From: a virus
Lineage: Duplodnaviria; Heunggongvirae; Uroviricota; Caudoviricetes
IMG/VR virus record: IMGVR_UViG_2698536651_000007
Length of the DNA: 18,266 nucleotides
Direction: 5' to 3' (one strand)
Shown piece by piece: positions 1 to 14,013 of this stretch; position 1 is the stretch's first letter; every line of letters starts with the position of its first letter. Made by a program: the position numbers and the translations under genes. The notes under the pieces were generated by a model. That model saw only the letters and a list, made by a program, of their open reading frames with translations. It was not told the origin of the DNA and did not search any database.

Positions 1-333
1 GGTTTCCACCACTTCAGCGGAGTCTCTGGCATTTTTCAGCTCCTGTGCGTCGGCCTGCGCACGCGTAAGTCGATGGCGTTCGTACTCAATAGTCCCTGGC
101 TGGAGATCTGTCTCGCTGGCCTGCCGCAGTTCTTCAACTTCCCGGCGCAGCTTTTCGTTCTCAATTTCAGCATCCCTTTCGGCATACCATCTTATAACGG
201 CGGCAGAGTCATAAAGCACCTCATTACCCTTGCCACCGCCTCGCAGAACGGGCATTCCCTGTTCCTGCCAGTTCTGAATGGTACGGATACTCGCACCGAA
301 AATGTCAGCCAGCTGCTTTTTGTTGACTTCCAT
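1..333 (-). CDS. nu1: Terminase small subunit Nu1, N-terminal 111 codons; CDS runs off the window start
   Basis: Reverse complement of 301-333 reads ATGGAAGTCAACAAAAAGCAGCTGGCTGAC ([10 protein letters not shown]) and stays in frame to position 1 (…[10 protein letters not shown]), matching lambda Nu1 as I recall it. Not in the ORF track because it is truncated by the window edge. Confidence 0.9.
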
Positions 334-560
334 TGTTCATTCCACGGCCAAAAACAGAGAAAGGAAACGACAGAGGCCCAAAAGCTCGTTTTCAGCACCT
401 GTCGTTTCCTTTCTTTTCAGGGGGTATTTTAAATAAAAACATTAAGTTACGACGAAGAAGAACGGAAATGCCTTAAACCGGAAAATTTTCATAAATAGCG
501 AAAACCCGCGAGGTCGCCGCCCCGTAACCTGTCGGATCGCCGGAAAGGACCCGCAAAATG
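334..560. other. Lambda-type cos region: cosN cohesive-end sequence at 511-522 (aggtcgccgccc, reverse complement of GGGCGGCGACCT), cosB between cosN and the Nu1 start, cosQ side at about 523-560
   Basis: Near-identity by eye to the lambda left-end sequence (GGGCGGCGACCTCGCGGGTTTTCGCTATTTATGAAAATTTTCCGG…) in reverse complement, immediately upstream of Nu1. Confidence 0.8.
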
Positions 561-721
561 ATAATAATTATCATCTGCATGTCACAACGTGCATCTACGC
601 CATCAAACCACGTCAAATAATCAATTATGACGCAGGTATCATATTAATTGATCTGCATCAACTTAACGTAAAAACAACTTCAGACAATACAAATCAGCGA
701 CACTGAATACGGGGCAACCTC

Positions 722-955
722 ATGTCAACGAAGAACAGAACCCGCAGAACAACAACCCGCAACATCCGCTTTCCTAACCAAATGATTGAACAAATTAACA
801 TCGCTCTTGAGCAAAAAGGGTCCGGGAATTTCTCAGCCTGGGTCATTGAAGCCTGCCGCCGGAGACTGTGCTCAGAAAAAAGAGTTTCTTCTGAAGCAAA
901 CAAAGAAAAGAGTGACATTACTGAATTGCTCAGAAAACAGGTCAGACCAGATTGA
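722..955 (+). CDS. ynfO: Small basic protein (77 aa), possible ribbon-helix-helix fold; ynfO-like
   Basis: ATG at 722. The segment NIRFPNQMIEQINIALEQKGSGNFSAWVIEACRRRL has the beta-strand/helix/helix pattern of Arc/CopG-type proteins. Same position as the small ORF next to cos in lambda and K-12 Qin (from memory). Confidence 0.55.
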   Translation: MSTKNRTRRTTTRNIRFPNQMIEQINIALEQKGSGNFSAWVIEACRRRLCSEKRVSSEANKEKSDITELLRKQVRPD

Positions 956-1012
956 AGCAATTTAGATAATCGTGCAGACTACGCCCCCTCATATCACATG
1001 GAAGGTTTATCT

Positions 1013-1423
1013 ATGGATCAGGTAGTCATTTTTAAACAAATATTTGATAAAGTTCGAAACGATTTAAACTATCAATGGTTTTATTCTGAGCTAAAACGTC
1101 ACAATGTCTCACATTACATTTACTATTTAGCCACAGAGAATGTTCATATTGTATTAAAAAATGATAATACAGTGTTATTAAAGGGCCTAAAAAACATTGT
1201 GTCTGTCAAATTTTCAAAGGATAGGCATCTTATAGAAACGACCTCTAATAAGCTGAAATCCAGAGAGATCACATTTCAGGAATACAGAAGAAACCTTGCT
1301 AAAGCAGGAGTTTTTCGGTGGGTTACAAATATCCACGAACAAAAAAGATATTACTATACCTTTGATAATTCATTACTATTTACTGAAAGCATCCAGAAAA
1401 CTACACAGATCTTACCACGCTAA
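1013..1423 (+). CDS. ydfO: DUF1398-family prophage protein (136 aa), ydfO-like; an in-frame ATG at 998 is a possible alternative start
   Basis: Translation [18 protein letters not shown]…[32 protein letters not shown] closely parallels the lambda right-end ORF (MAQVAIFKEIFDQVRKDL…). GGAAGG lies 7 nt upstream of the ATG at 1013. Confidence 0.8.
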
Positions 1424-1574
1424 ACCATAACGTCCGGCTTCTCTCACTCCTGAGCCGGACTGCATTGGTTTAATAAAAACCATCAACAATTGTGATTTAG
1501 ATATTCGGAACCATTCAAATATAACAAAACCCCGTAAAAACGAGGTTTATGGATAAATTTTATTATTGAATACA

Positions 1575-1748
1575 TCAGATTAAATTAATCTTGACATCAT
1601 AGCTTTCAAGACCCGTCATTTTTTCCCGTGCGGTAAACTGAATACTGGTAACTTCTTTCCCGGTCTTTTTCTTAAGTTCAATAATTTTTTTTGTTATATA
1701 TTCAGAAATATCTGCTTCTGCTTTTGTTTTTAAGTTTTCAATATTCAT
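1575..1748 (-). CDS. gnsB: GnsB-like small protein (57 aa; 58 aa if the adjacent ATG ending at 1751 is used)
   Basis: Reverse-complement translation MNIENLKTKAEADISEYITKKIIELKKKTGKEVTSIQFTAREKMTGLESYDVKINLI matches GnsB as recalled. Absent from the ORF track because it is under 60 aa. Confidence 0.8.
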   Translation of the reverse strand: MNIENLKTKAEADISEYITKKIIELKKKTGKEVTSIQFTAREKMTGLESYDVKINLI

Positions 1749-1919
1749 CATTTCCTCTTTTAGTCTGTTATGACTTTCCAGTTACACAGTAAGTCGATTA
1801 TATGGTGCAAACGTGTAAAAGATAAGATGAAACATCGCAATAATCAACATACGATAGTCTAAATTTTACACAAACAGACAAAGGGAATTTTCCTGAATTA
1901 TCAATGCAATAGCATCAAA

Positions 1920-2075
1920 TCAACTCAAGAGCCTTATTGCTGCTTCCAGAATTTCTTCTGAAGTAACATGTCGATCCGCGGCTACATAAATGACTTTATG
2001 ATCTCCGGTCAGAGATGGAAACCCTGCGGCCATTACAGTAAGGTGTGTTTTTTCGCCATTTGGATATTCACGCAT
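1920..2075 (-). CDS. ynfN: Small prophage protein, ynfN-like (51 aa); start uncertain, frame is open up to 2192
   Basis: Start chosen at MREYPNGEK… by recall of a 51-aa K-12 product. No strong SD at any candidate start; in-frame alternatives at 2096 and 2150. Confidence 0.45.
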   Translation of the reverse strand: MREYPNGEKTHLTVMAAGFPSLTGDHKVIYVAADRHVTSEEILEAAIRLLS

Positions 2076-2192
2076 GATGGTGTTAACTCCAGTCATCGCT
2101 GGCACTACCACTGCTGGTTCAGAGTTAAAAAAAACTATGATTTTTTTCATGATGTTACCGTAGTATGTGAGTATCCATCGAATAGACACCAA

Positions 2193-2215
2193 GCAAAAAA
2201 GCTCCCGAAGGAGCC
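2193..2215 (-). terminator. Intrinsic terminator on the minus strand downstream of cspI (stem gctcc/ggagc, UUCG loop, U6 tract)
   Basis: Minus strand reads ggctccttcgggagcTTTTTTgc; hairpin plus U-tract seen directly. Confidence 0.5.
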
Positions 2216-2421
2216 TTCATTTTCACTTTTTTAAATCCAACGACAGACGGCTGGCATTTAAGTATTGTGAAATATTATCAAATGTAATCATCATTGATTT
2301 ACAAAAGATACATTTTGCCCCGAAAGGATTCATGTCAGAAACATCAAAAGATGATGTTCTATACTGGGAACCATGACAACACGGGCATCTAAAGTGAATA
2401 TGGTTTGTAATATTGTCTACC

Positions 2422-2634
2422 TCAAAGCGCCACTACATGAACAGCGGCAGGACCTTTAGGTCCGTTCTCAATACCAAATTCAACTTCCTGATTCTCAGTT
2501 AATGTTTTGAAATCGTTGCTCTGAATTGCTGAGAAATGGACAAACACATCTTTGCTGCCATCTTTCGGCGTGATGAAACCAAAACCTTTTTCAGGGTTAA
2601 ACCATTTCACTAAACCAGTCATTTTGTTAGACAT
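2422..2634 (-). CDS. cspI: Cold-shock protein CspI-like (70 aa, CspA family)
   Basis: [70 protein letters not shown] carries the RNP1/RNP2 cold-shock-domain motifs (KGFGFI, VFVHF). Confidence 0.9.
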
Positions 2635-2996
2635 AATTATTACCTTTTGAAGAAATTAGCCCTTGGGCAGAATGGTCCGAAAAAAAATATCAGAGAGAAA
2701 AACCAACAAGGAAATCTCAAGAGGTACAAATAATAAAATTATAACAATGACTGCTTCAGATAAATTTGTAACAAACCAGAACACCATTAACGCATGATTA
2801 ACCACCCATAGCAAGGATTACTTTTGTAAAGAAAAACACAGCAATGAAAGAATAGCTTTATTTATTAATAAAACGTGTCATTCTGATTAAGACCTTTTAT
2901 CTTACCCTTAAGATTTCAGGAATTTTGGCTCATGGAAGAGTCCTTTTTATTTAAATTTTACATTCCGCGATGTAAATGTTCCGATTTAATATTACC

Positions 2997-4020
<1,024 letters not shown>

Positions 4021-4024
<4 letters not shown>

Positions 4025-4332
4025 AGATATTTATGATGAGGACGCTCGTGCTTATTGGCAGGATTTTCAATCTTAAAGGAGTACTGATGCTGCAGATAAG
4101 ACTCAACTTTTTCTGACAATTTTTCTGCTACTTCCAGGAAGACTTGCCGGACGCTCCTTCTGGCTGCTGCCTCATAAAACTCCAGCGCAGCTCCTTCAAC
4201 ACGGTCCATGGCGACATCCAGGTCAAAAATTTCACCGTCAAAGCGTTCTTTGTCCTGTAAGGCTACAGTTACCGTAACTTTATTCTCAAAATTACGGACT
4301 CCTTTCACAACCAGTTCATAGTCTTGAGTCAT
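4021..4332 (-). CDS. ydfR: Conserved prophage protein between holin and endolysin (ydfR-like, DUF1327 by recall)
   Basis: ATG with GAGGAGAG SD; 103 aa; the ATGA junction couples it to the endolysin. Confidence 0.75.
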
Positions 4333-4336
4333 TGGA

Positions 4337-4552
4337 TTACTCTCCTCTCGCAGCCTTACGCCTGTCTTCTTTAATCTTGAAATAAAGATTTGTCAGATAC
4401 GTCAGCAGGCCAAAAACCAGGCTACCCAGCACACCGATTGCAGCCCACTGTGACGGAGTTACTTTATCGAGTAACTGCAATGCCCAGAAACCAGCATTAC
4501 CCGCCGATGTGCCATAGGCAACACCTGTTGTTAACTTATCCATTGATTTCAT
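4337..4552 (-). CDS. essQ: Class II pinholin, phage 21 S-like, with dual-start motif M-K-S-M
   Basis: [71 protein letters not shown] has two TM segments and matches S21 as recalled. GGTGAGGA SD upstream of the first ATG; the ORF-track 5' extension has no RBS and is rejected. Confidence 0.85.
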
Positions 4553-4771
4553 ATCCTCACCCCGATGTACACGGATGGTGCAATATGTTTGAAAAGATCG
4601 GAGTCTACGGGGTAGTTTTGACAGCACACGTTGTTCTCAACGGCGCTAAAAAAACATACACATTAAAAATGTGGGTAATTATTTTGAAAGAAAGTCATAT
4701 ATAAAATAATAATACGAGAAATGTTTTCATATTTAGTGTACTGTATACGGCCATTTATACAGGAAAAGCCT

Positions 4772-4942
4772 ATGTCAGAACGTAAAAACTCAAAATCACG
4801 CCGTAATTATCTCGTTAAATGTTCCTGCCCAAACTGCACCCAAGAGTCAGAACACAGTTTTTCAAGAGTACAAAAAGGTGCCCTTTTGATCTGCCCTCAT
4901 TGCAACAAAGTATTCCAGACAAATCTTAAAGCTGTAGCCTGA
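4772..4942 (+). CDS. Small zinc-ribbon protein (56 aa; C-x2-C … C-x2-C)
   Basis: AGGAAAAG SD 3-4 nt before the ATG at 4772. MSERKNSKSRRNYLVKCSCPNCTQESEHSFSRVQKGALLICPHCNKVFQ has two CxxC pairs. May correspond to a K-12 small protein (ynfU?), recalled only weakly. Confidence 0.5.
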   Translation: MSERKNSKSRRNYLVKCSCPNCTQESEHSFSRVQKGALLICPHCNKVFQTNLKAVA

Positions 4943-5005
4943 TTGATTTTATTAGTAACAAGTATTTTTTATATTTTAATAATATATTTAAAGCAGATAA
5001 TAAAA

Positions 5006-5023
5006 AACCCGCCTGAGCGGGTT
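5006..5023 (-). terminator. Intrinsic terminator downstream of cspB on the minus strand (stem cccgc/gcggg, followed by UUUUUUAUUAU)
   Basis: Hairpin aacccgc-ctga-gcgggtt with a strong T-tract on the minus strand and a weaker one on the plus strand. Confidence 0.6.
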
Positions 5024-5305
5024 TGAGATTGTGGTGCTTTTTGTGGGAGTCATCCACTTACGCACTTTGTTTTGCCATGCCAGCAGTTAGCTTCTGCTGT
5101 AAAACTATTCATGCAGCAAACCTGCACTTCACCACAATGGTTAGCATACTTTTCCTGATTAAGATTTTGCCAAATATGCTAGCCATTGTTTCATGTATTG
5201 GACCTCCTTACTTTTTATTAAAGAGATCCAATATTCACTACTCTGTCCGTATCTCTACTCAGGCATCAGCCTTCTTCGTTATCGTATACAGACGAGCGAT
5301 GAATT

Positions 5306-5521
5306 TTAATCAGTAATGATGACATTTGCTGCTGCAGGACCTTTAGCACCACTCTCTATAGAGAAGGTAACCTTTTGACCTTCAAATAAGGTTCGATAAT
5401 TATCATTCTGAATCGCAGAAAAATGCACAAACACATCTTTACTACCATCAACAGGAGAAATAAAGCCGAAACCTTTATCAGCGTTAAACCATTTTACTAA
5501 ACCAGTCATTTTATTTGACAT
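5306..5521 (-). CDS. cspB: Cold-shock protein CspB-like (71 aa)
   Basis: [71 protein letters not shown]. Confidence 0.9.
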
Positions 5522-5821
5522 TCTACATTCCTTAACTTGAGCCTTTCGGCATAAATGGTTTGCATAACAGAAACGACTTCGTACTTAATTGGAGAGACTC
5601 AAAGAAGGAATAAGTGAATAACACCTGAAATGAGAACTGCTTTAGTAAACTACTTCGTATATCGTCTGTTCTTCAAACCGACGCAATCATTAACGCATAG
5701 TTGAACATATGAAGCAATGTTTATTTTAGACATCCAGCCATCTTCAACCCCATCAAAAAACTATAGCTTTCTTCAGGAACGTGTGTATAGTGCGCCAAGT
5801 TATCAGTATTAAGGAATTTTT

Positions 5822-6034
5822 TTGTCCCGTAAAATGACAGGAATTGTCAAAACCTTTGACGGCAAAAGCGGCAAGGGTCTTATCACCCCATCCGATGGTC
5901 GTATCGATGTCCAGCTTCATGTTTCAGCGCTCAATCTCCGCGATGCAGAAGAAATTACCACCGGATTACGCGTGGAATTTTGCCGGATAAATGGTCTGCG
6001 TGGCCCTTCAGCTGCCAATGTTTACCTTTCATGA
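5822..6034 (+). CDS. cspF: Cold-shock-domain protein CspF/CspH-like (70 aa), TTG start
   Basis: [77 protein letters not shown] 6 nt before the TTG. Divergent from cspB. Confidence 0.85.
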
Positions 6035-6088
6035 GCTATATTAAAGCTTTAATTTCAGGCCCCATCGGATCACACATGGAGAGTTTTT

Positions 6089-6178
6089 ATGAATAACCCC
6101 GTCTGTCTTGATGACTGGTTGATTGGCTTTAAAAGCTTATGCTGTACTTTGGCCGTAATAGCTCTGCTAATAATATAA
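6089..6178 (+). CDS. Candidate 29-aa hydrophobic small protein
   Basis: GGAGAG SD (6078-6083) 5 nt before the ATG at 6089; translation [29 protein letters not shown]. Below the ORF-track size cutoff. No homology evidence. Confidence 0.3.
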
Positions 6179-6326
6179 TAAGCAGACTCATTGTGTTTAG
6201 GGACATTGTACTGGAAGAAAACATTTTAAACATCAGGCAAATAACCAAGTCACCAGCTAAATAATAAGTTAACAGACATGAGTCCCGGGATGAGATTCAA
6301 CATTACCATTGCCCCATTTAAAGCAC

Positions 6327-6350
6327 AAAACCCGCTCATCAGCGGGTTTT
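6327..6350. terminator. Bidirectional intrinsic terminator (10-bp stem aaaacccgct/agcgggtttt, loop catc); candidate tR' on the minus strand and cspF terminator on the plus strand
   Basis: Perfect hairpin with T-tracts on both strands. Confidence 0.65.
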
Positions 6351-6395
6351 CTACTTTTTCTTAACGTCGGGTATACAAAGCCCATCGTTGAAAAA

Positions 6396-6424
6396 ATTTT
6401 ATCCATATTTTTTGAAAAATGCAA
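6396..6424 (-). promoter_or_regulatory. Candidate late promoter pR' (minus strand: -35 TTGCAT, 17-bp spacer, -10 TAAAAT) immediately downstream of Q
   Basis: Reverse complement of 6396-6424 reads TTGCATttttcaaaaaatatggaTAAAAT. Lies about 30 nt after the Q stop and about 45 nt before the terminator, the arrangement expected for a Q-dependent pR'/qut/tR' unit. Confidence 0.45.
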
Positions 6425-6455
6425 ACATCATGTCGCCATCTTCAGCAAAAATCAT

Positions 6456-7208
6456 TTATCTCGTCACCTTCCTCAATTGCGCTTCCGCGTATGCTTCTTC
6501 CTGCCAGCACTTTGTTACCAGTTTACCAATGACGTCCGCATACCCCTTATACCACTGATAATCGGTCAGGTCTGGTACCAGCTTCTGGACATGACGTCGT
6601 GCCAGCGTGGTCGGTAAACGACTAAACCGGTTTCCATTACAACGCCCACAAATCTTATATACCGGTACGCCATGAAACCGGGTTCTTTTTTCATCCAGAA
6701 CAATCCCTTTACCCTTACACCCTCTGCACGCTGTGCTGGCTTCGCCCTTACCATGGCAATGCTGACATAGTTCCTTCACCCATTCTTCCTTGATTACAGA
6801 TTCCCCGCGTCTGTAGTGTTTCACCACTTCGCGCAATACATTATAAAATCCCGTACCTGAACAATGCTCACAGCGAGCCTTACTTGCCGCAGACCTGGAG
6901 TAATCAGCAAAGGCAAAACTCACGAGGTAAGGAATAATCTGTAACCGGATTTCTTCACTCAATTTGTTCAATGTCGGGTTATCCAGTGCCATCGCGTAAT
7001 TTAGCAGGCCTTCAATCGCAAACTGAGGGTCCTGAACACCAACTTTTGCCAGAAATAAGGCCAACCCAAGTGGTGCTTTCGACTGCACCATCCCCTGCGC
7101 TGCCATTACATCCGTAATTGTTAAACAACCGGTGCCTGTCGCTGGAGCGTCATCGCTCAATTTTGGAGATTTTGGGGAGTAATATTTTGGTAAGGCTTCA
7201 AGGTTCAT
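6456..7208 (-). CDS. quuQ: Late-gene antiterminator Q (phage 21/82-type, 250 aa)
   Basis: MNLEALPKYYSPK… with four CxxCxGxG-like repeats (CEHCSGTG, CQHCHGKG, CRGCKGKG, CGRCNGN). GGAGAA SD before the ATG at 7208; the ORF-track upstream extension is rejected. Confidence 0.85.
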   Translation of the reverse strand: MNLEALPKYYSPKSPKLSDDAPATGTGCLTITDVMAAQGMVQSKAPLGLALFLAKVGVQDPQFAIEGLLNYAMALDNPTLNKLSEEIRLQIIPYLVSFAFADYSRSAASKARCEHCSGTGFYNVLREVVKHYRRGESVIKEEWVKELCQHCHGKGEASTACRGCKGKGIVLDEKRTRFHGVPVYKICGRCNGNRFSRLPTTLARRHVQKLVPDLTDYQWYKGYADVIGKLVTKCWQEEAYAEAQLRKVTR

Positions 7209-7221
7209 GCTCGTTCTCCAC

Positions 7222-8271
7222 TTACGCCAGTACGCCAATTGTCAGCGCGCGATCGATAAAACGAAATATCAGCTCCAGTTGGGAGCCATACTTATCTTCA
7301 AATGCCACTGTATCCGTATGCAGCTCGTTGTGATGCTTTCTGCACAAAGGCAACACAAAGAGATCATGTGCTTTTGTTCCCATTCCGCCCTGCCCGTGAC
7401 CAATCAGATGATGCGGATCGTCGGCTGGCATACCGCAGCAAGCACACGGCTGTGTCTTAACCCAACGTGTGTATTTCTCCTTAACCCAGCGGCGACGTTT
7501 AGGCAGCTTCATGAAAGATTCCGGAGACTCTGGATCAACGGTGATGCTTACCACCGTCTTTTCCTGTGGTGATTTTTGTTGCTGGTGGGCGTAAGGCAAC
7601 GGTGCAAGATTTTTTGTGCGTTGTTTCAATATGCTGGTGGCGGTCTGCTCTCCCGGTACGATGTCGCTTTCGCGGTACACCGAGCAGATTTTTTCCGCTG
7701 GTAATCCCAGCGAACGACGCGATACAGCCTCAGGTAGTGCATCCACCACCTGATTGCAGACCGCCCACCAGGATAATTCAGCCAAAGATAATTCCCGCTC
7801 CTGCGTACCGCTTATTGCGTGACGGATGACGTCAATCACCCATGCTGTCAGATTTTGTTGAGCAAGCAGCTCCAGTGATTCCGATGTCTGGTCACGCAGT
7901 TGGTTGTCGCAGTGCCAGCACAACACCATTGCGCCGGTACCATAACGGTGAATGACTGTTTCAGTGTGATGGTAATCGCCATTAGGCCACTGGCAGGATG
8001 TAACATGACGTAATAGCCAGTCGGACAATGCGCCAACGCCGCCAGCAGCACGAATCACCCGTTCGTTACTAAAAAACGGCAGCAATGTTTTGTCTTCCGC
8101 CAGCGGCTGGCGAACGGCAGGAACGACTCCGGATGGCAGATTACGCATGCTTTTTGGTTCCGGTTCCACCAGCACTCGAGGATTATGAAATATCTGTATG
8201 GATTCACGGCCCGGCTTAAGGACCACCAGCCCAAGCTCAGGCACCAGAACAGGTCTAAGTAATACCCGCAC
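7222..8271 (-). CDS. ydfU: DUF968-type prophage protein (349 aa) with C-terminal HNH-like Cys/His motif; GTG start
   Basis: GGAGGT SD immediately upstream of the GTG at 8271. C-terminus CACCGMPADDPHHLIGHG…CRKHHNELH. Same position as ydfU in K-12 Qin (recall). Confidence 0.75.
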   Translation of the reverse strand: MRVLLRPVLVPELGLVVLKPGRESIQIFHNPRVLVEPEPKSMRNLPSGVVPAVRQPLAEDKTLLPFFSNERVIRAAGGVGALSDWLLRHVTSCQWPNGDYHHTETVIHRYGTGAMVLCWHCDNQLRDQTSESLELLAQQNLTAWVIDVIRHAISGTQERELSLAELSWWAVCNQVVDALPEAVSRRSLGLPAEKICSVYRESDIVPGEQTATSILKQRTKNLAPLPYAHQQQKSPQEKTVVSITVDPESPESFMKLPKRRRWVKEKYTRWVKTQPCACCGMPADDPHHLIGHGQGGMGTKAHDLFVLPLCRKHHNELHTDTVAFEDKYGSQLELIFRFIDRALTIGVLA

Positions 8272-8272
8272 G

Positions 8273-8551
8273 TTACCTCCAGATCCGTTGCTGGAAAGTG
8301 CGGGACGCACGTGGTGGGCGTTCGGAATAAGGCAGCCTGACAGAGATTATCCAGTGCCGATAGTCGAGACTGAGAGCTTTCTTAACCTCGAACCCGCGCC
8401 TGCGGTAAGAATGAATCAGCCATTCGGCCTGTTCTGCAGTGCATGGAGGGTGCTGGAACCATTCAGACTTGAATGCGTGAGAATACCGCCCGTGCGTGCA
8501 GGCAAGAACGGGCGAATTATCAGAATTGTAATATTTTGCGTTGCGTGCCAT
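8273..8551 (-). CDS. Hypothetical 92-aa protein, translationally coupled to ydfU
   Basis: ATG at 8551 preceded by GGAGAA at 5-nt spacing. Its stop is 1 nt from the ydfU start codon and contains the ydfU SD. Confidence 0.55.
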   Translation of the reverse strand: MARNAKYYNSDNSPVLACTHGRYSHAFKSEWFQHPPCTAEQAEWLIHSYRRRGFEVKKALSLDYRHWIISVRLPYSERPPRASRTFQQRIWR

Positions 8552-8617
8552 CGGTTTTCTCCGGTGGCACGGTGTTACTCAGCGGGAGTTCAGCCCCGCG
8601 CAAGATTGTAGATGAGT

Positions 8618-8869
8618 TTATTCTCCTGAAAAAGCAGAAAAGCCAGCTTTTATTCCGATCTCTTTCAATGCCTGTAATGAAGTGACAAACTCACCTTCGC
8701 GCAAGATAAATCCGTCCGTGACCCGAGCATCCACAAAATTAATTAACGCAGCCCCATTCTTTCGCAAACACATAATGCGGTAATGACTAACAAGATTTCC
8801 ATTTTCAACGCACACAGCATAGAGGCCATCTTCACAAAAAATTTTACGCAGTTCTTCGATGTTCATCAT
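8618..8869 (-). CDS. rem: Rem-like prophage protein (83 aa)
   Basis: MMNIEELRKIFCEDGLYAVCVENGNLVSHYRIMCLRKNGAALINFVDARVTDGFILREGEFVTSLQALKEIGIKAGFSAFSGE, with GGAAGGA SD. Matches K-12 Rem by recall. Confidence 0.8.
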   Translation of the reverse strand: MMNIEELRKIFCEDGLYAVCVENGNLVSHYRIMCLRKNGAALINFVDARVTDGFILREGEFVTSLQALKEIGIKAGFSAFSGE

Positions 8870-8999
8870 CAGAATCCTTCCGGATAATTAGCTCTCCCCT
8901 TTAAGGGACCATCCCTCTTATCCCTGCGCGCTACTTAAGTATTTTTGATTCTATTCCGGCACCGTCCAGAACTTCAAACGCGTTGAAAATAAAAACAAA

Positions 9000-9017
9000 A
9001 ACCCGCCGAAGCGGGTT
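9000..9017 (-). terminator. Intrinsic terminator downstream of hokD on the minus strand (stem cccgc/gcggg, UUCG loop, then UUUUUGUUUUUAUUU)
   Basis: Hairpin aacccgc-cgaa-gcgggtt with a long T-tract on the minus strand. Confidence 0.6.
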
Positions 9018-9085
9018 AAGTGCGGGTGCGTTGAGGATGCCTGCCACATCAGAGGTGGCGAGGGATTTCTCCCCCGCCGGGTCTC

Positions 9086-9241
9086 TTACTCCTCAGGTTC
9101 GTAAGCTGTGAAGACAGCGACCTCCGTCTGGCCGGTTCGGATTCGTACCTCGCAGAGGTCTTTCCTCGTTACCAGTGCCGTCACTATGACGGTTAAACAG
9201 ATGACGATCAGGGCGATTAACATCGCCTTTTGCTGCTTCAT
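9086..9241 (-). CDS. hokD: Hok-family membrane toxin HokD/RelF (51 aa)
   Basis: Reverse-complement translation MKQQKAMLIALIVICLTVIVTALVTRKDLCEVRIRTGQTEVAVFTAYEPEE. Not in the ORF track (under 60 aa); the + strand ORF 9108-9329 is its antisense. Confidence 0.9.
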   Translation of the reverse strand: MKQQKAMLIALIVICLTVIVTALVTRKDLCEVRIRTGQTEVAVFTAYEPEE

Positions 9242-9312
9242 AGCCTGCTTCTCCTGTCAACGCAAAGCAGAAGTGTCACCTTCGGTGCGAAACAGAGATG
9301 TCATGCTTTGGT

Positions 9313-9600
9313 TCAGAGAATGCGTTTGACCGCCTCGCTATATACTTCCGAGCGTTCTCTTTTCCCAACAGAAATCACGAAAACGACAACTTTCTCGTCT
9401 ATAACCTGGTATACAAGGCGATAGCCTGAAGACCGGAGCTTAATCTTGTAACAATCAGGCATACCACGGAGCTTGTTTGCTTCAATCCGGGGTGACTCAA
9501 GTACTTCAACCAGCTTCTTTTTCAACTGTTCACGTACCGTCGAGCCCAGCTTTCGCCATTCCTTTAGTGCCCGCTCGTCAAAATCCAGAAAATACGCCAT
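9313..9600 (-). CDS. relE: RelE mRNA interferase toxin (95 aa)
   Basis: MAYFLDFDERALKEWRKLGSTVREQLKKKLVEVLESPRIEANKLRGMPDCYKIKLRSSGYRLVYQVIDEKVVVFVISVGKRERSEVYSEAVKRIL. Confidence 0.9.
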   Translation of the reverse strand: MAYFLDFDERALKEWRKLGSTVREQLKKKLVEVLESPRIEANKLRGMPDCYKIKLRSSGYRLVYQVIDEKVVVFVISVGKRERSEVYSEAVKRIL

Positions 9601-9839
9601 CAGAGTTCATCCAGCGTCACACGTACTGGCTTAGGATTACGAAGCCGTTCTTTCACTATCTCCACAAGTTCAGCATCTTCATCACTCAGGAGTGTCTGTT
9701 TGAACGGCAAGCGTTCATTGTCAGCGATATACTCGAGCATGAGACGAAGCGCTTCAGAAGGAGTTACACCCATTTTTTCAAGCGCGGCGTAAGAACGCGC
9801 TTTAAGTTCATCGTCAATACGCAGGTTAATGCTACCCAT
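9600..9839 (-). CDS. relB: RelB antitoxin (79 aa, RHH); 1-nt overlap with relE
   Basis: MGSINLRIDDELKARSYAALEKMGVTPSEALRLMLEYIADNERLPFKQTLLSDEDAELVEIVKERLRNPKPVRVTLDEL. Confidence 0.9.
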   Translation of the reverse strand: MGSINLRIDDELKARSYAALEKMGVTPSEALRLMLEYIADNERLPFKQTLLSDEDAELVEIVKERLRNPKPVRVTLDEL

Positions 9840-9852
9840 GTCTTACACCTCT

Positions 9853-9877
9853 TGTAATTACAAATGTCATTACAAGT
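9853..9877 (-). promoter_or_regulatory. relBE promoter/operator (relO) with palindrome ttgtaattacaa and a repeated attacaa motif
   Basis: Palindromic TTGTAA/TTACAA element directly upstream of the relB start, consistent with the known RelB2-RelE operator architecture. Confidence 0.5.
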
Positions 9878-10010
9878 ATCGCACTACAACATGCTTAGGG
9901 CAAGTCACGAAGGAAGTCAGAAAGTAGTCGTAAGAACGGTGATCACTGTCCGCTTTGTGCCAATAGCGGACATTGCTGGCTCATGGTATGTTAGTTTAAG
10001 GAGGCAGGTT

Positions 10011-11033
10011 ATGCCCTGTATTTCGCTGTGGTATAATAGTTGCGCAATTGATACAAGGGAGCGTTACATCGTGAAAATTGTTTTCGAGGTTAATGGAAAG
10101 AAAGTTCCACTAAAATCTTTAAAATACATAAGCAAAAAAGATCAACTCGAAGTAATGAAAAACTGGTTCTTTGAAAACTTTGAAGATCCGGCAAATGCTT
10201 GTCCGTATGAAAGTAGAGAAGGTGGCTATGCTTACATATATGGCGGGCCGTATGATGCGAGCGAAGAACTACAATCCATCTTCGGTCAATATGTTAAATC
10301 TGAGTATATTGAGGAATTAGTAGATGAATTACAAACACAATGTTTTGACTGGTCTGGAAACTCAAATAATATAGATGATTGGTACGATGATGATATCTAC
10401 GACGCTGTAACGTCTTCCGGTAATCCGTATTTAAAATTCATTGATAATATCGATAAAATAAAAAAACTTGCAAAAGATAAAACTGAACAACAGCAAAAAA
10501 ACCACTTGCTTAGTTTGCTCTACACGAATGTTATTACAGCTTTGGAAACGCTTTATGTTGAGCTATTCATTAATTCTATAGAGAAAGATGATGTCTACAT
10601 AGCCAATTGTATAGAAAAAGGTAAGACTGAATTTAAAGTAAGCAAAGATATTGCTGCGTTGCCTTTCAAGGGTGAACCCATCGAGAAAATTAGGGGAGAG
10701 CTAATCAGGTCAATCAAGGAACACTTGATCAGTGCAAGCTGGCATAGCACTAAAAAGGTAATCGACCGCTATGAAGCTACATTCGATATAAAAGTACAAA
10801 AAGACTGTCCGATAGAAGCTATTGAATTGGCAACCCTCAATCGAAATCACTTAGTGCATCGTGGTGGAAAGGATAAAGAAGGGAACCTCGTAGTGATTAC
10901 AGACCAGGATCTTGAAACGCTGATTGAAAATGCATCGAACCTGGCAATTATGCTCTACAACAGTTTAAATGTAGCAACGAATAAAACCACCATTTTGCAA
11001 CCAGATGACAAACCGTTCATTCATGAATTTTAA
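10011..11033 (+). CDS. Hypothetical protein A of the AT-rich two-gene cassette (340 aa from ATG 10011; 320 aa if GTG 10071 is used); HEPN-like RNxxxH motif near the C-terminus
   Basis: ATG 10011 has AAGGAGG at 6-nt spacing; the alternative GTG 10071 has AAGGGAG and the candidate promoter upstream. Motif NRNHLVHRGG at 10839-10868. Visibly AT-rich relative to flanks. No homolog recognised. Confidence 0.7.
   Translation: MPCISLWYNSCAIDTRERYIVKIVFEVNGKKVPLKSLKYISKKDQLEVMKNWFFENFEDPANACPYESREGGYAYIYGGPYDASEELQSIFGQYVKSEYIEELVDELQTQCFDWSGNSNNIDDWYDDDIYDAVTSSGNPYLKFIDNIDKIKKLAKDKTEQQQKNHLLSLLYTNVITALETLYVELFINSIEKDDVYIANCIEKGKTEFKVSKDIAALPFKGEPIEKIRGELIRSIKEHLISASWHSTKKVIDRYEATFDIKVQKDCPIEAIELATLNRNHLVHRGGKDKEGNLVVITDQDLETLIENASNLAIMLYNSLNVATNKTTILQPDDKPFIHEF
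10029..10037 (+). promoter_or_regulatory. Candidate extended -10 element TGgTATAAT for the downstream AT-rich cassette
   Basis: tgGTATAATag at 10029-10039. It would place a transcription start about 10 nt upstream of the AAGGGAG SD that precedes the GTG at 10071. Confidence 0.35.
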
Positions 11034-11048
11034 TAGCGCAGGTCATAC

Positions 11049-12050
11049 ATGGATATTCGCACACGAAAGACAAAATTTTTAGAGTCGTTAGATTCAACTG
11101 AAGTGATACGCAAAGCAGTAAGTCTCGCTATAGATTGCATTATTGATAATCATAATAGTAATGAAGATACCCCCTTAGTTATTACCAGCTATGATGATCT
11201 CTGTAGAATCCAGGTGCTAAATTATGTACAGGAGTTTTGCGAAGCTGCATTCCCTGATATGGATGAATATTACTTTAGTCCTAACATACTTCGCATCAAC
11301 GGCAAGACTAGTGAAGAAGCTTGTATTAACTTAATTAAACTCTTAAGAAGTACAAAAGGCATGCTATTCTGGTCCGATGCCCCATCGTGGTTCGCTAGCC
11401 TCCCCGACGGATTATTCCATGTTGTTAACATTGATCAAAAAATCGTTACTCGCGGCCTTAATAAGAAAAACTCTAAGCCGACAATAATCAATAAAGATTA
11501 CAGTGTAGATACACTACTATCAGAGCTATTTTTGAATGGCGCACACATGGAGCAACCCAACGTACACAACGTTTCTGAGGGAAACATGAAGTTCTATGAT
11601 GAATGCCATGCTGGATTAATCAGACCAATACCCGCTCCAATAGGCGCGTCATACGATGAAGAGATCACAATTAATTCTCCAGATTGGCAAAAGCTCGCGT
11701 GTGTAGCTTTACGCCGCTATCAGTCGAAGGAATGTCATGACGGAATGCAATGGGATACAACCGATCATGGTTGGACTGATGTAATCGCGTATCCATTCGT
11801 CGAAGAAATACAATCAATGGATAATAGTGGTTATCGACAATGTTTAGTTGGGCTGGTCACAATAAACAATTCAAATGCAAATTCTCCGTACCTATCTACC
11901 GTTTGGATACATCCATTTTATCGCAGGAGAGGGTTATTAAGTAAGTTATGGCCAAAATTACAAGAGTTATATGGAAGTAACTTCGAAATTGAGCGACCTA
12001 ATGAAAATATGAAAGCATTTCTGAAAAGTGCGAAACACGCAGATTACTAA
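11049..12050 (+). CDS. Hypothetical protein B of the cassette (333 aa); possible GNAT-like segment near the C-terminus
   Basis: ATG 15 nt after the stop of A, so probably an operon. …STVWIHPFYRRRGLLSKLWPKL… resembles GNAT motif A (tentative). AT-rich. No homolog recognised. Confidence 0.7.
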   Translation: MDIRTRKTKFLESLDSTEVIRKAVSLAIDCIIDNHNSNEDTPLVITSYDDLCRIQVLNYVQEFCEAAFPDMDEYYFSPNILRINGKTSEEACINLIKLLRSTKGMLFWSDAPSWFASLPDGLFHVVNIDQKIVTRGLNKKNSKPTIINKDYSVDTLLSELFLNGAHMEQPNVHNVSEGNMKFYDECHAGLIRPIPAPIGASYDEEITINSPDWQKLACVALRRYQSKECHDGMQWDTTDHGWTDVIAYPFVEEIQSMDNSGYRQCLVGLVTINNSNANSPYLSTVWIHPFYRRRGLLSKLWPKLQELYGSNFEIERPNENMKAFLKSAKHADY

Positions 12051-12329
12051 TTTATGAATCAGTCTGTGGAGTTAGGGTTGGTGTGAACAAGTAGGGTAAG
12101 AGCCTCAACGTGATGCTATGCCGACCTGCTCCCTGAGAATTCACACAGAAGGCTGCTAGCAATGTCTGCAGATCGCTCTTAGCGGACATTAGCATAGGCT
12201 ATTTACCATAACGCCTCATTACGCGCACCGCCCAGACTGACTCAGCGCGTTTCTGGCATATCCCCGGTAAAACAAGTAACAAACCACCCGAAAATGAACA
12301 CCAGAAACGCGACTTAAGAATCTACCCTA

Positions 12330-13720
12330 TGAATGGATATGCACTCAACCGAATCGATCTTGGTTTCAATCTTTTTTATCGGGATCAGGCTTCTTTTTAG
12401 GTAACTTCGGGGGCTTAACTTGCTGATGACTTTGCGTTCGGCGCGTAAGCCAGGGATGGTCAGCTTTAGGTTTAACATAGTATTTTGAGCGTAAATCAAT
12501 ACGGGCATTATCCACTCGTTCATGGACACTCTTTTCATCATCCAGTGGTATAGGCTCCGGGCCATCAACATACTTTTCCCAGCCCAGCGCTTTCCCGTCA
12601 TACAGAACGTTAATTTCACCGTCAAAGTTCTCGCATACAGTAACAACCGAATGCCTAAGTCGATATCCCCGGCCCTCACTGCGTACCTGAAACGCACTGC
12701 TTTTGTACTGGAAAGTGAGATTTTTAGACAGAACGCGCTTCGCCTGTAGGCTGAAGATATAACCCAGTTCCTCTTCAGAATGGTGCACATCAAGATGAGC
12801 ATTATCAGTAGTACGAGGCGACGTAGCGAACCGGTTGTTATAGGCTTCAATAAAGGTCGGCAACCATGCATTTGCTGTTTCAATATCACTGATATTCTGA
12901 AGCCGCATTTCTTTGACCAGCCTGTCCTGTAGTGTCTGATTGGCGCGCTCTACCCGCCCTTTTGCCTGCGGGCTGTTGGCATGGATTGGCTCGATGCCCA
13001 GTGTCTTTATCGCACGAGTGAACTGGGTCAGCTCACCTTCCCGCTCTGGGTTATTTACCCTGAATATACTGTGTCTATCAGAGTAGAGAGCGAGCGGTAC
13101 GCCATGATCATTAAGGTAACCCCGGAGGGTTTCCATGTAAGCCCGGGTTGTTTCAGCAGGCACAAAACGCAACGCCATCAACGCACTGGTGGCATCATCA
13201 ATGAAAACGATCAGTGTACATCTGGGGCCTCGATTTTCAAACCAGTCATGAGGTGAGCCATCAATCTGGATCAGTTCACCGTAAGATGGTCGTCGCATGC
13301 GGCGTTGATATATACGGGCAATTTTACGACGGCGTTCACGCCATAACCCCTCTTCTATCATCCACTTTCTGAGAGTTTCAACGGATAAAGATAAACCGTG
13401 TATCTCGCGCAATTTTTCGCACGCAAACGTAGGTCCAAAATCAGCGTAACGGCCTTTGAGGAGTGAAATTACTGTTGCTCTGAATTCAGTAGAAAAGGAA
13501 TTATTAGGACGCTTTCCACGTCGGTGGGAAACCAGACCAGAAGGCCCTTCATTTCTATACCGTTGCACCAGACGTTTAACCTGCCGAATAGAAATGCCAA
13601 TGCGTGCCGCAGCTTGTTCCTGAATAATCTGAAGTCGGTGGAGTTCCTTATGACTCATCGTAACAGTCTCTTTGATCATGAAAAATCCCCCAGAGAATTG
13701 TCTGGGGACATTTTAGAATG
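12330..13720 (-). mobile_element. Insertion sequence carrying the DDE transposase; termini not resolved, so coordinates are a minimum approximate extent
   Basis: Transposase gene present; no convincing terminal inverted repeats or target-site duplication could be identified by eye. Confidence 0.35.
12366..13679 (-). CDS. DDE (rve/integrase-core) transposase with N-terminal HTH; IS481/ISNCY-like
   Basis: 437 aa. HTH-like N-terminus (ARIGISIRQVKRLVQRY), DDE candidates (…IQIDGSPHDW…, …IVFIDDATS…, …KGRVERANQTLQ…), basic C-terminal tail. GGGGGA SD before the ATG at 13679. Confidence 0.8.
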   Translation of the reverse strand: MIKETVTMSHKELHRLQIIQEQAAARIGISIRQVKRLVQRYRNEGPSGLVSHRRGKRPNNSFSTEFRATVISLLKGRYADFGPTFACEKLREIHGLSLSVETLRKWMIEEGLWRERRRKIARIYQRRMRRPSYGELIQIDGSPHDWFENRGPRCTLIVFIDDATSALMALRFVPAETTRAYMETLRGYLNDHGVPLALYSDRHSIFRVNNPEREGELTQFTRAIKTLGIEPIHANSPQAKGRVERANQTLQDRLVKEMRLQNISDIETANAWLPTFIEAYNNRFATSPRTTDNAHLDVHHSEEELGYIFSLQAKRVLSKNLTFQYKSSAFQVRSEGRGYRLRHSVVTVCENFDGEINVLYDGKALGWEKYVDGPEPIPLDDEKSVHERVDNARIDLRSKYYVKPKADHPWLTRRTQSHQQVKPPKLPKKKPDPDKKD

Positions 13721-14013
13721 GTTCAAAGGGGACATTACAGCTTGGTGTTAACAATAGCCTGCTTCTCCGTGCCTTTCGGCACGTAAGAGGCTAACCTACA
13801 TGTGTCTAGCATGAAATTGGCCTCAGATTAATGTTAAGCGTCTTGCAGGACGCGTAATGTTAACTGGGGCTTTTCTCTATCTGCCGTTGGTGTCCATGCC
13901 CGAGGCAGATAGCCTCAAGCACCCGCAGTCATTCTACTTAACTAAGATTTCCCCGCAAACCGTTTTTGTCCAGCACAGTAAATATCCAACTAAACCAATG
14001 GAGTTCGCTGTAT

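Follow-up and report, generated by a model that had tools for sequence, protein, structure and literature searches.

A probable recombinant junction between relBE control DNA and a repeat-bounded two-gene cassette in a caudoviral genome

The 236-bp region at positions 9840–10075 lies in an 18,266-nt stretch of Caudoviricetes DNA, here called the window, between two gene pairs that point away from each other. To its left, on the minus strand, are relB (9600–9839, 79 aa; Pfam RelB, E = 1e-32), which encodes an antitoxin and repressor, and relE (9313–9600, 95 aa; Pfam ParE_toxin, E = 2e-13), an ORF for a type II toxin that is named relE in the collinear Qin prophage. To its right, on the plus strand, are the genes for protein A (10071–11033, 320 aa from its predicted start) and protein B (11049–12050, 333 aa). 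These two genes form the cargo of a 2.24-kb cassette (9947–12188) that has a copy of a hairpin repeat at each end, the two copies being inverted relative to each other. The preliminary description of this DNA had read the region as a divergent control region, and all the motifs that it listed were found again, each in its place, when the window was re-indexed.

The relBE side is K-12 DNA. Window positions 9590–9962 are 100% identical to E. coli K-12 MG1655, including relB, the relO operator and the relBE promoter. The relO operator (9852–9875, minus strand) is made of a pseudo-palindromic half-site, TTGTAATGACAT, and a perfectly palindromic one, TTGTAATTACAA, with no spacing between them; together they hold four [A/T]TGT[A/C]A hexads and stop 12 nt short of the relB ATG at 9839. 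The full 24-bp sequence, TTGTAATGACATTTGTAATTACAA, is an exact match, against none expected by chance. The palindrome ttgtaattacaa (9852–9863), already placed in the relBE operator by the preliminary description, is the perfect right half-site of published relO. On the same strand, the relBE promoter (9875–9903) would consist of a −10 hexamer GATACT (9880–9875) and a −35 hexamer TTGCCC (9903–9898) separated by 17 nt, with a predicted start near 9868. The assignment of these hexamers agrees with the published position of relO, about −10 to +17/+20 and overlapping the −10 box (PMC2812701). The half-site sequences and the hexad motif are likewise published, and relO requires both half-sites with no gap between them (PMC2812701). 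Binding by RelB2-RelE and conditional cooperativity are described in the literature for a K-12 sequence identical to that of the window (PMC2812701), and the native promoter and operator would be repressed by RelB2-RelE here in the published manner.

Base-for-base identity to the K-12 Qin prophage covers positions 9840–9962, a stretch that takes in relO, the relBE promoter and ydfV codons 1–33 (9864–9962, plus strand). It stops at 9962, where the ydfV remnant is fused in frame to cassette DNA; on plasmid NZ_CP069974.1, the same ydfV stretch is called by PGAP as a ydfV pseudogene without its C-terminus. The Qin prophage is collinear with window positions 1–9977 and again from 12175 to the window end, and compared with Qin the cassette takes the place of 1,750 bp that hold the 3′ part of ydfV, IS1 and flxA. 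Cassette homology in the S88 prophage spans 9947–12187, beginning at the very start of the left repeat; the left end falls at 9948 in a Serratia island and at 9950 in a Providencia plasmid, both with a 78–88% identical tail to 12187. The recombination joint consists of the first 16–31 nt of the left repeat, which also occur in K-12 ydfV. Judged by sequence, three parts make up the region: K-12 Qin DNA (9840–9962), a copy of the hairpin repeat (9947–10011) and the protein A leader (10012–10070). Module exchange at the short common sequence (9947–9962/9977) would have swapped the 3′ part of ydfV and flxA for the cassette.

The 5′ end of the cassette occurs in about 217 of 5,426 complete genomes and has relB next to it in 2, and the adjacency to relBE is apparently a rare recombinant. 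We consider it probable that the region is a recombinant junction rather than an integrated divergent control region, and that protein A is made from GTG 10071 in a cassette that sees to its own expression. The sequence comparisons directly show the K-12 identity, the limits of the modules, the orthologous start and the non-coding character of 10011–10070; an active promoter, its start site and joint transcription of the two cassette genes are predicted.

A promoter for the cassette is predicted at the extended −10 element TGgTATAAT (TGGTATAAT; 10029–10037, plus strand), from which transcription would start at about 10043–10046. As bare motifs, this −10 and the strong Shine–Dalgarno (SD)/ATG pair upstream of it are insignificant because their counts are near chance (TGNTATAAT, two in the window against 0.73 expected, with at least two in 28 of 200 shuffles; AAGGAGG-N6-ATG with at most one mismatch, two against 1.0 expected), and their meaning comes from comparative data. 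TGn-extended −10 elements with at least five of six hexamer matches precede the GTG by 39 or 40 nt in five lineages (the window, Serratia, Providencia, Aeromonas and one further contig, L089), and comparable elements are found at −60 in Yersinia and at −28 in E. coli Combat11I9. The classical −35/−10 scan of 9500–10400 called no promoter at the cassette site, because the −35 is poor (at most two of six matches by eye). In both the window and Serratia, the genes upstream of protein A run divergently from it, and in Combat11I9 a hairpin followed by a T-run, identified by eye, lies upstream of the protein A gene, which therefore needs a promoter of its own. The conserved position across lineages supports a predicted promoter that travels with the cassette, and the extended −10 pointed out in the preliminary description, with a start near 10044, is the best candidate. 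Such a sigma-70 promoter, with its weak −35, would give a leader of about 26 nt carrying the SD AAGGGAG; the 320-aa protein A would be translated from GTG 10071, and protein B, 15 nt further on, would follow on the same transcript. ATG 10011 would lie upstream of this transcript and, on this reading, is not the start of protein A. A second TGn element, TGgTATGTT at 9984–9992 within the repeat, could yield a transcript that includes 10011.

The predicted initiation site of protein A (10055–10073) comprises the SD AAGGGAG (10055–10061), a 9-nt spacer (CGTTACATC) and GTG 10071. Starts fall within a few residues of the corresponding valine in all but 6 of 37 aligned homologues (26–88% identity) and in all but two of those with at least 48% identity, and PGAP places the start at this GTG in three E. 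coli contexts (WP_014639476.1). The GTG is present in eight of eight lineages, within CGTT[AG]CATC-GTG-AAA in six and with slight variants in Yersinia and Providencia. From 10071 onward, identity at the three codon positions is 93/95/78% against Aeromonas and 82/91/51% against Combat11I9; third-position divergence sets in at the GTG itself, and the preceding stretch, 10011–10070, contains indels that are not multiples of three. Serratia has 61 nt there instead of 60, a frameshift that puts the ATG out of frame; Aeromonas has ATT in place of ATG 10011 and a TGA stop at the n position of TGn, leaving the GTG as the sole in-frame start codon past the upstream stop; an 11-nt deletion removes the ATG in Providencia; and Combat11I9 reads ATG-TTA-TAA at the corresponding stretch. 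The stretch is thus non-coding in every diverged relative, which argues against the earlier suggestion that an internal promoter yields a shorter isoform. The alternative offered with it, that 10071 is the true start, is favoured by the homologue starts, the codon-position divergence and the conserved GTG, which together support a start at GTG 10071 and a predicted product of 320 aa.

The upstream pair (AAGGAGG-N6-ATG, 9998–10013) looks fortuitous, a chance product of the G-rich repeat end meeting the leader. Its SD (9998–10004) lies in the distal repeat, as seen when the repeat consensus, ending in GGGAgcAGGTCA, is aligned with the window, ending in GGAGGCAGGTTA; its ATG straddles the joint between repeat and leader, and the similarity of Aeromonas to the protein A leader starts at 10012. 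What the preliminary description missed was this location of the strong SD/ATG in the boundary element, together with the ydfV remnant at the opening of the long ORF; the pair itself it had placed correctly. Against the GTG stand, in the E. coli-type sequence, the in-frame position of ATG 10011, its ideal SD and spacing and its intact state in about 200 genomes, which count as one observation because the copies are nearly identical. Several annotation pipelines give 340 aa and some 370 aa, and for initiation the GTG with its 9-nt spacer is weaker than the AAGGAGG/ATG before it.

On a rival reading, two isoforms would be made: 340 aa from ATG 10011 (expected N-terminal peptide MPCISLWYNSCAIDTR) on transcripts started further upstream, by early-operon read-through in S88-type prophages or from TGgTATGTT at 9984–9992, and 320 aa from GTG 10071 on transcripts of the TGgTATAAT promoter. 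Besides the perfect SD and spacing of an in-frame ATG in E. coli-type sequence, the co-oriented DUF977 gene upstream in S88 speaks for such a scheme, as do the common annotation of the 340-aa form and the block CATGGTATGTTAGTTT with its TGn-type −10, which is kept in Serratia, Providencia, Combat11I9 and A38. We nevertheless regard it as unlikely: frameshift, stop or loss of the ATG makes the extension missing or impossible in all diverged relatives, the SD and ATG are accounted for as parts of the boundary repeat, and the extension is modelled at pLDDT below 50, although no aligned sequence spans it. As the extension is absent in relatives and its start signals come from the repeat, any long form would be an unselected by-product. 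A longer protein still, from ATG 9864, is hardly credible. ATG 9864, ATG 10011 and GTG 10071 all share one frame that is open from 9864 to 11033, and the exact 389-aa product is called on four public contigs, which would be expected of a genuine fusion of the YdfV N-terminus to protein A. Its first 33 residues, however, are those of K-12 ydfV, the frame then runs on through the recombination joint and the repeat, and it is closed in S88 and every other context; ATG 9864 moreover falls within the relO operator and the relBE promoter, and no promoter or SD that would serve it is evident. The 389-aa ORF is apparently spurious, made by the in-frame joint of ydfV remnant and cassette.

The preliminary description also allowed for control of the cassette through RelB-RelE autoregulation, whereby relO-bound RelB/RelE, or divergent relBE transcription, would modulate the cassette promoter some 175 bp away. 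The promoters do lie back to back in the window, and the same arrangement is carried as a unit on E. coli and K. variicola plasmids, in copies, however, whose relE is truncated. The adjacency is confined to 2 of the roughly 217 complete genomes with the cassette, and the 5′ region is identical in some 200 genomes without relBE beside it, prophages included. No relO-type array of four hexads was found near the cassette promoter, where a single isolated hexad match in 9904–10075 is at chance level, and relO needs both half-sites unspaced (PMC2812701). Coupling to relBE is therefore very unlikely; the divergent layout would be an accident of module exchange, and RelBE control of the cassette should not be inferred from the arrangement.

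Protein A is predicted to have a HEPN/RES-NTD1-like N-terminal domain and a C-terminal HEPN-type domain. All 38 aligned sequences share R278 and H283 (340-aa numbering) of its R-x4-H motif, RNHLVH. In our own Pfam scan the protein matched HEPN_RES_NTD1 (PF18870) only, at 21.9 bits against a cut-off of 27.4 bits; many of its homologues carry precomputed matches to PF18735, PF18870 or both, and in UniRef it is entered as a RiboL-PSP-HEPN domain protein. Its model is all-helical (pLDDT 80), with no Foldseek match in the PDB at E ≤ 0.001 and nothing from PDB sequence profiles. Protein B has, as modelled, a GNAT fold with the acyl-CoA-binding core in its C-terminal acyltransferase domain (AlphaFold pLDDT 89): Foldseek matches it to HAT1, MYST, aminoglycoside acetyltransferases (AAC) and SSAT with probabilities of 0.9–1.0 and E values of 1e-4 to 4e-3, and Pfam Acetyltransf_1 scores 19.9 bits, just below its cut-off of 20.7 bits. 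Neither protein matches a family in PADLOC-DB v2 or NCBIfam, and PHROGs places them in families of unknown function only. An obligate toxin–antitoxin-like pairing was rejected, each protein being found alone elsewhere: protein A in Aeromonas (L006/L090), Yersinia (L007), a further locus (L009) and E. coli Combat11I9, protein B in Marinomonas, Shewanella and Citrobacter.

The cassette is AT-rich relative to its flanks. In lambdoid prophages its place is between the DUF977 replication module and hok/nin, and further copies are found in a CP4-like island and on plasmids. Strains that carry it include UTI89, S88 and APEC O1. A scan of 11900–12450 found no intrinsic terminator after gene B. Its left boundary repeat (9947–10011, plus strand), the top inverted repeat, is about 66 nt long and comprises the hairpin GTCCGCT-N10-AGCGGAC, ATTGCT and a distal part ending in AGGCAGGTTA; the right copy (12121–12188, minus strand) is inverted with respect to it, matches as an inverted and as a direct repeat, and shares its outer 13 nt with Qin, whose collinearity resumes at 12175. 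The terminal inverted repeats extend over at least 34 nt, and the cassette ends coincide in four contexts. The left copy aligns with a further 28 distinct instances taken from viral contigs. In general form the repeat reads GTCCGCT-N8-12-AGCGGAC-ATTGCT...AGGTCA, and copy number is low, at 1–3 per genome. The flanks showed no target-site duplication, the ORF list holds no transposase gene within the cassette, and no transposase or integrase was found to go with the repeat. Rfam, at gathering and E-value thresholds, gave no RNA family in 9700–12400. Both hairpins fold with z of about −1.8 and the protein A leader is predicted to be unstructured (z = +0.3); because these z-scores are modest for the hairpins and +0.3 for the leader, we claim neither a terminator nor a riboswitch-like leader. 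RNAalifold gave no covariation over 30 instances, and none could show because the search pattern fixed the stem. A likeness of the right hairpin loop (CGCTCTTA) to lambda boxA was dropped, as the loop varies between copies. The repeat may bear some likeness to the ERIC repeat, judged by the ERIC primer sequences.

The region is ordinary except for this boundary repeat; searches of the open-access literature by protein accession, repeat sequence and keywords returned no description of it or of the cassette. It marks a prophage cargo slot and, alone among the elements described, might for that reason open up something new. Tentatively, and with a rather low expectation of being right, we suggest that mobile or exchangeable cassettes of an undescribed class end in this repeat; they would carry self-promoted, defence-looking accessory genes between one hypervariable slot of lambdoid prophages (DUF977 module to hok/nin), CP4-type islands and plasmids, perhaps through recombination that recognizes the hairpin. 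Homologous exchange at the repeats accounts for the data equally well. Public databases list protein A at 320, 340, 370 and 389 aa; of these lengths, comparison with relatives settles on 320 aa, and the 389-aa ORF and the ydfV remnant are artefacts of the recombination joint. The GTG in eight lineages and the near-identical 9-nt spacer in six would fit a tight limit on how much of a putative HEPN RNase is translated, which matters if the gene is cloned or assayed for toxicity or phage defence.

Parts of the locus have parallels in known systems. A short imperfect palindrome at each end of variable cargo is also found in MITEs, REP/BIME, IS200/IS605-type palindrome-ended elements and integron attC, and cassette ends that are identical across unrelated genomic contexts recall repeat-bounded mobile units; in contrast to such units, the repeat has a low copy number, and neither a transposase or integrase to go with it nor a target-site duplication was found. 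The cassette resembles prophage morons, which are accessory genes of prophages expressed on their own, in lying between conserved phage modules, in its AT richness and in its own conserved promoter-like element, and differs from them in the lack of a found terminator after gene B, the inverted hairpin repeats at its edges and its occurrence in the CP4-like island and on plasmids. The domain architecture of protein A is that described for MAE_18760 and RiboL-PSP-HEPN proteins with HEPN/RES-NTD1 (Anantharaman et al. 2013, PMC3710099); compared with MAE_18760-type HEPN proteins, it has neither a PADLOC nor a PDB structural match and is a putative RNase only. The predicted cassette promoter has the perfect TGnTATAAT, the weak or absent −35 and the short leader to the SD of extended −10 sigma-70 promoters, an assignment based on the consensus match and on a position that orthologous loci share. 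Finally, the relBE promoter and relO are the same DNA as in the K-12 Qin prophage, with the same two 12-bp half-sites, the same four hexads and no internal difference; only the neighbour has changed, with the cassette in place of ydfV–flxA from 9963 on.

Three candidate start codons, ATG 9864, ATG 10011 and GTG 10071, share one open frame (a 389-aa ORF at 9864–11033), and the four lengths of protein A in databases (320, 340, 370 and 389 aa) show that the ambiguity of its start is real; comparison resolves it. Among 37 aligned homologues (88% to 26% identity), all but 6 start within a few residues of the valine at 10071, as do all but two of those with at least 48% identity. At the DNA level, the GTG is common to eight lineages—the window together with S88, Serratia, Providencia, two Aeromonas loci, a metagenomic contig, Yersinia and a second E. 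coli locus—and CGTT[AG]CATC-GTG-AAA is found in six of the eight, with slight variants in Yersinia and Providencia. Downstream of 10071, differences fall mainly on third codon positions, with identities at positions 1/2/3 of 93/95/78% in Aeromonas, 88/92/60% in contig L089 and 82/91/51% in E. coli Combat11I9; upstream of 10071, this coding pattern vanishes. The homologue starts, the third-position pattern and its loss upstream argue that protein A starts at GTG 10071, which follows the Shine–Dalgarno (SD) sequence AAGGGAG (10055–10061, + strand) after 9 nt, and is 320 aa long.

The preliminary description, whose motifs were all found in place on re-indexing, had left two options. That of a true start at 10071 is borne out by the homologue starts, the shared GTG and the third-position divergence; that of a shorter isoform made from an internal promoter is not, as the coding pattern is lost upstream of 10071 in relatives. 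The upstream frame itself varies. In Aeromonas, ATG 10011 reads ATT, and TGG becomes TGA at the free 'n' of TGnTAYAAT, closing the frame while keeping the promoter consensus, and after the upstream stop GTG is the sole start codon ahead of the conserved codons. An 11-nt deletion removes the ATG in Providencia, the upstream stretch of Combat11I9 reads ATG-TTA-TAA and the ATG-to-GTG distance in Serratia is 61 nt, versus 60 in the window. Across the initiation region (window 10052–10079 compared with loci L005, L097, L086, L089, L090, L007 and L084), the eight lineages all keep GTG and six keep the 9-nt spacer CGTT[AG]CATC, despite third positions only 50–60% identical. This suggests that the translation initiation region of protein A is under selection, possibly to limit how strongly a putative HEPN RNase is translated.

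The second contender, AAGGAGG (9998–10004, +) followed after 6 nt by ATG 10011, is present as described but appears to be a by-product rather than a conserved start. The left copy of the cassette's boundary repeat spans 9947 to about 10011 and aligns at its distal end (..AAGGAGGCAGGTTA) with consensus ..GGGAgcAGGTCA; the Aeromonas loci, which have no repeat, become similar to the window at 10012. Together these indicate that the SD is part of the repeat and that the ATG was formed at the joint, within 1–2 bases of where repeat and leader meet. As bare motifs, the ribosome-binding and promoter elements are not above chance: AAGGAGG-N6-ATG with up to one mismatch occurs twice versus 1.0 expected, and TGNTATAAT twice versus 0.73.

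The extended −10 element TGGTATAAT (10029–10037, +) is the TGgTATAAT carried by the gene-A-specific leader (10012–10070). A TGn-extended −10 hexamer with at least 5/6 matches stands at −39/−40 from GTG in five lineages (TGgTATAAT in the window, TGgTACAAT in Serratia and Providencia, TGaTACAAT in Aeromonas and TGtGATAAT in contig L089), at −60 in Yersinia and at −28 in Combat11I9; more distant loci have plain TATAAT. A classical −35/−10 scan called no promoter in the control region. The window and Serratia both have divergent neighbour genes upstream, and in Combat11I9 a hairpin and then a T-run were seen by eye ahead of gene A, so gene A would need its own promoter. The conserved position supports the earlier assignment of this element as a promoter upstream of 10071, and we infer that it is −35-independent and sigma-70-type, with transcription starting near 10043–10046 and a leader transcript of ~26 nt with no predicted structure. 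The predicted start coincides with a perfect 8-bp palindrome, TTGCGCAA (10040–10047); kept in Serratia and Providencia and broken in Aeromonas, it could be a candidate operator or chance.

The longest frame has a different origin. K-12 ydfV begins at ATG 9864, and K-12 identity ends at 9962; the PGAP annotation of plasmid NZ_CP069974.1 treats this stretch as a pseudogene, a truncated ydfV, and begins the next gene at GTG. By this alignment, the 389-aa ORF is a chimera of a ydfV start and cassette DNA. A cryptic E. coli prophage of the Qin type, the window (88% covered by 519 complete genomes) has 1750 bp of Qin (the 3′ part of ydfV, IS1 and flxA) replaced by 9978–12174, the inserted module being a 2.24-kb unit also found at other loci. 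This unit is flanked by a DUF977 gene and hokD in the lambdoid prophages of the S88, APEC O1 and UTI89 type, with homology of exactly 9947–12187; it begins at 9948 in a Serratia grimesii CP4-like island and at 9950 in a Providencia plasmid, both with a 78–88% tail to 12187. The joints, 9947–9977 and 12175–12187, are short sequences common to cassette and Qin. K-12 ydfV itself (1398–1703 of K-12 locus L096; window 9864–9977) begins within relO and the relBE promoter and traverses a degenerate boundary-repeat copy, which casts doubt on it as a real protein-coding gene. Elsewhere in the window, Rfam matches comprise two cspA-type thermoregulator leaders (2395–2780 and 5290–5682, both −) and a sok antisense RNA beside an ISNCY transposase gene (13753–13924, −), suggesting a further hok/sok locus in addition to hokD (9086–9241).

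The boundary repeat, inverted at the cassette ends (9947–10011, +; 12121–12188, −), is ~66 nt long with the layout GTCCGCT-N8-12-AGCGGAC-ATTGCT...AGGTCA and the consensus GTCCGCTnTGAGCGAnnAGCGGACATTGCTAACAGCATTCTGTGTGAATCAAcgGGGAgcAGGTCA (instances compared: window and loci L157, L158, L159 and L100–L156). A pattern scan of IMG/VR recovered it from 57 viral contigs, of which only 12 carry this cassette, and its flanks there represent about 30 distinct contexts. Of 5426 complete E. coli genomes, 1071 match the 66-nt consensus, with 1–3 copies each, and 30 of the 30 matches listed are without annotation. In lambdoid prophages, CP4-like islands and plasmids, it also edges unrelated cargo genes. 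One such gene, of 314 aa, is preceded by the repeat and followed by a hairpin both in a CP4-like island and, inverted, in the same prophage slot next to DUF977; strain A20 has a near-empty slot, in which ~230 nt of other sequence lie between the left hairpin and a right-end half hairpin; and in K-12 Qin both positions carry degenerate copies. These three cases indicate that the repeat marks an exchangeable cargo slot. Exchange may rely on homologous recombination at the repeats or on a dedicated mechanism; we found no target-site duplication at the cassette ends, no recombinase going with the repeat and no description of it in the searchable literature. A weak partial match (about 14/22) to its distal part, TGAAT...GCAGGTCA, at 11024–11045 covers the end of gene A and the A–B spacer just ahead of the ATG of B, and may be chance.

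Protein A combines a HEPN/RES-NTD1-like N-terminal region with a C-terminal HEPN-type domain bearing an invariant RNHLVH, and had no match in PADLOC, NCBIfam or PDB; protein B has a C-terminal GNAT fold. An obligate A–B pair is ruled out, each gene being found alone elsewhere: B in Citrobacter, Marinomonas and Shewanella, and A in other E. coli, Aeromonas and Yersinia. The Yersinia copy is in what looks by eye like a P2-like prophage, given Ogr-, portal- and terminase-like genes around it. Providencia rettgeri plasmid pNR1418-2 (3111–5082) has a fragmented A beside an intact B, which fits the absence of interdependence. A 3.3-kb contig labelled MAG Collinsella sp. (JAIHTM010000277.1) matches the E. 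coli cassette at 99.9% DNA identity, encodes identical A and B proteins and has hok/sok-like flanks; its Collinsella assignment is most likely binning contamination.

Regulation of the cassette in the context of RelB–RelE, suggested earlier, is unsupported. Among 5426 complete E. coli genomes, about 217 carry the 5′ region of the cassette, which adjoins relB in two records only, plus one further K. variicola plasmid. The relB–ydfV′–cassette arrangement of the window is also on resistance plasmids NZ_CP069974.1 (E. coli) and NZ_CP114364.1 (K. variicola), consistent with capture from a chromosome like that of the window. In at least the former, relE is truncated and the copy sits amid IS elements and resistance genes, with IS26 downstream of the cassette and ISKpn19, and with qnrS1 and erm(B) close by. 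Further, 9904–10075 holds one lone hexad match, at chance level, versus the four contiguous hexads needed. The two promoters, with start sites about 175 bp apart, would simply be neighbours.

Finally, the relBE side matches K-12 MG1655 base for base (9590–9962). Its promoter elements we take to be −10 GATACT (9880–9875) and −35 TTGCCC (9903–9898), which would put the start site near 9868, consistent with the published footprint. Ahead of the relB ATG (9839, −), the perfect palindrome ttgtaattacaa (9852–9863) was rightly read as part of the relBE operator, although the pseudo-palindromic other half-site was missed; the full relO, TTGTAATGACAT+TTGTAATTACAA (9852–9875, −), is an exact 24-bp match, with 0 expected. 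As dissected by Overgaard et al. (PMC2812701), relO comprises both half-sites as four [A/T]TGT[A/C]A hexads that must be contiguous, tolerates no spacing between half-sites and overlaps the −10 box, extending from about −10 to +17/+20. By sequence, this side is the already known K-12 element; the control region itself is ordinary, and the sole aspect with some novelty is the hairpin-bounded cassette.
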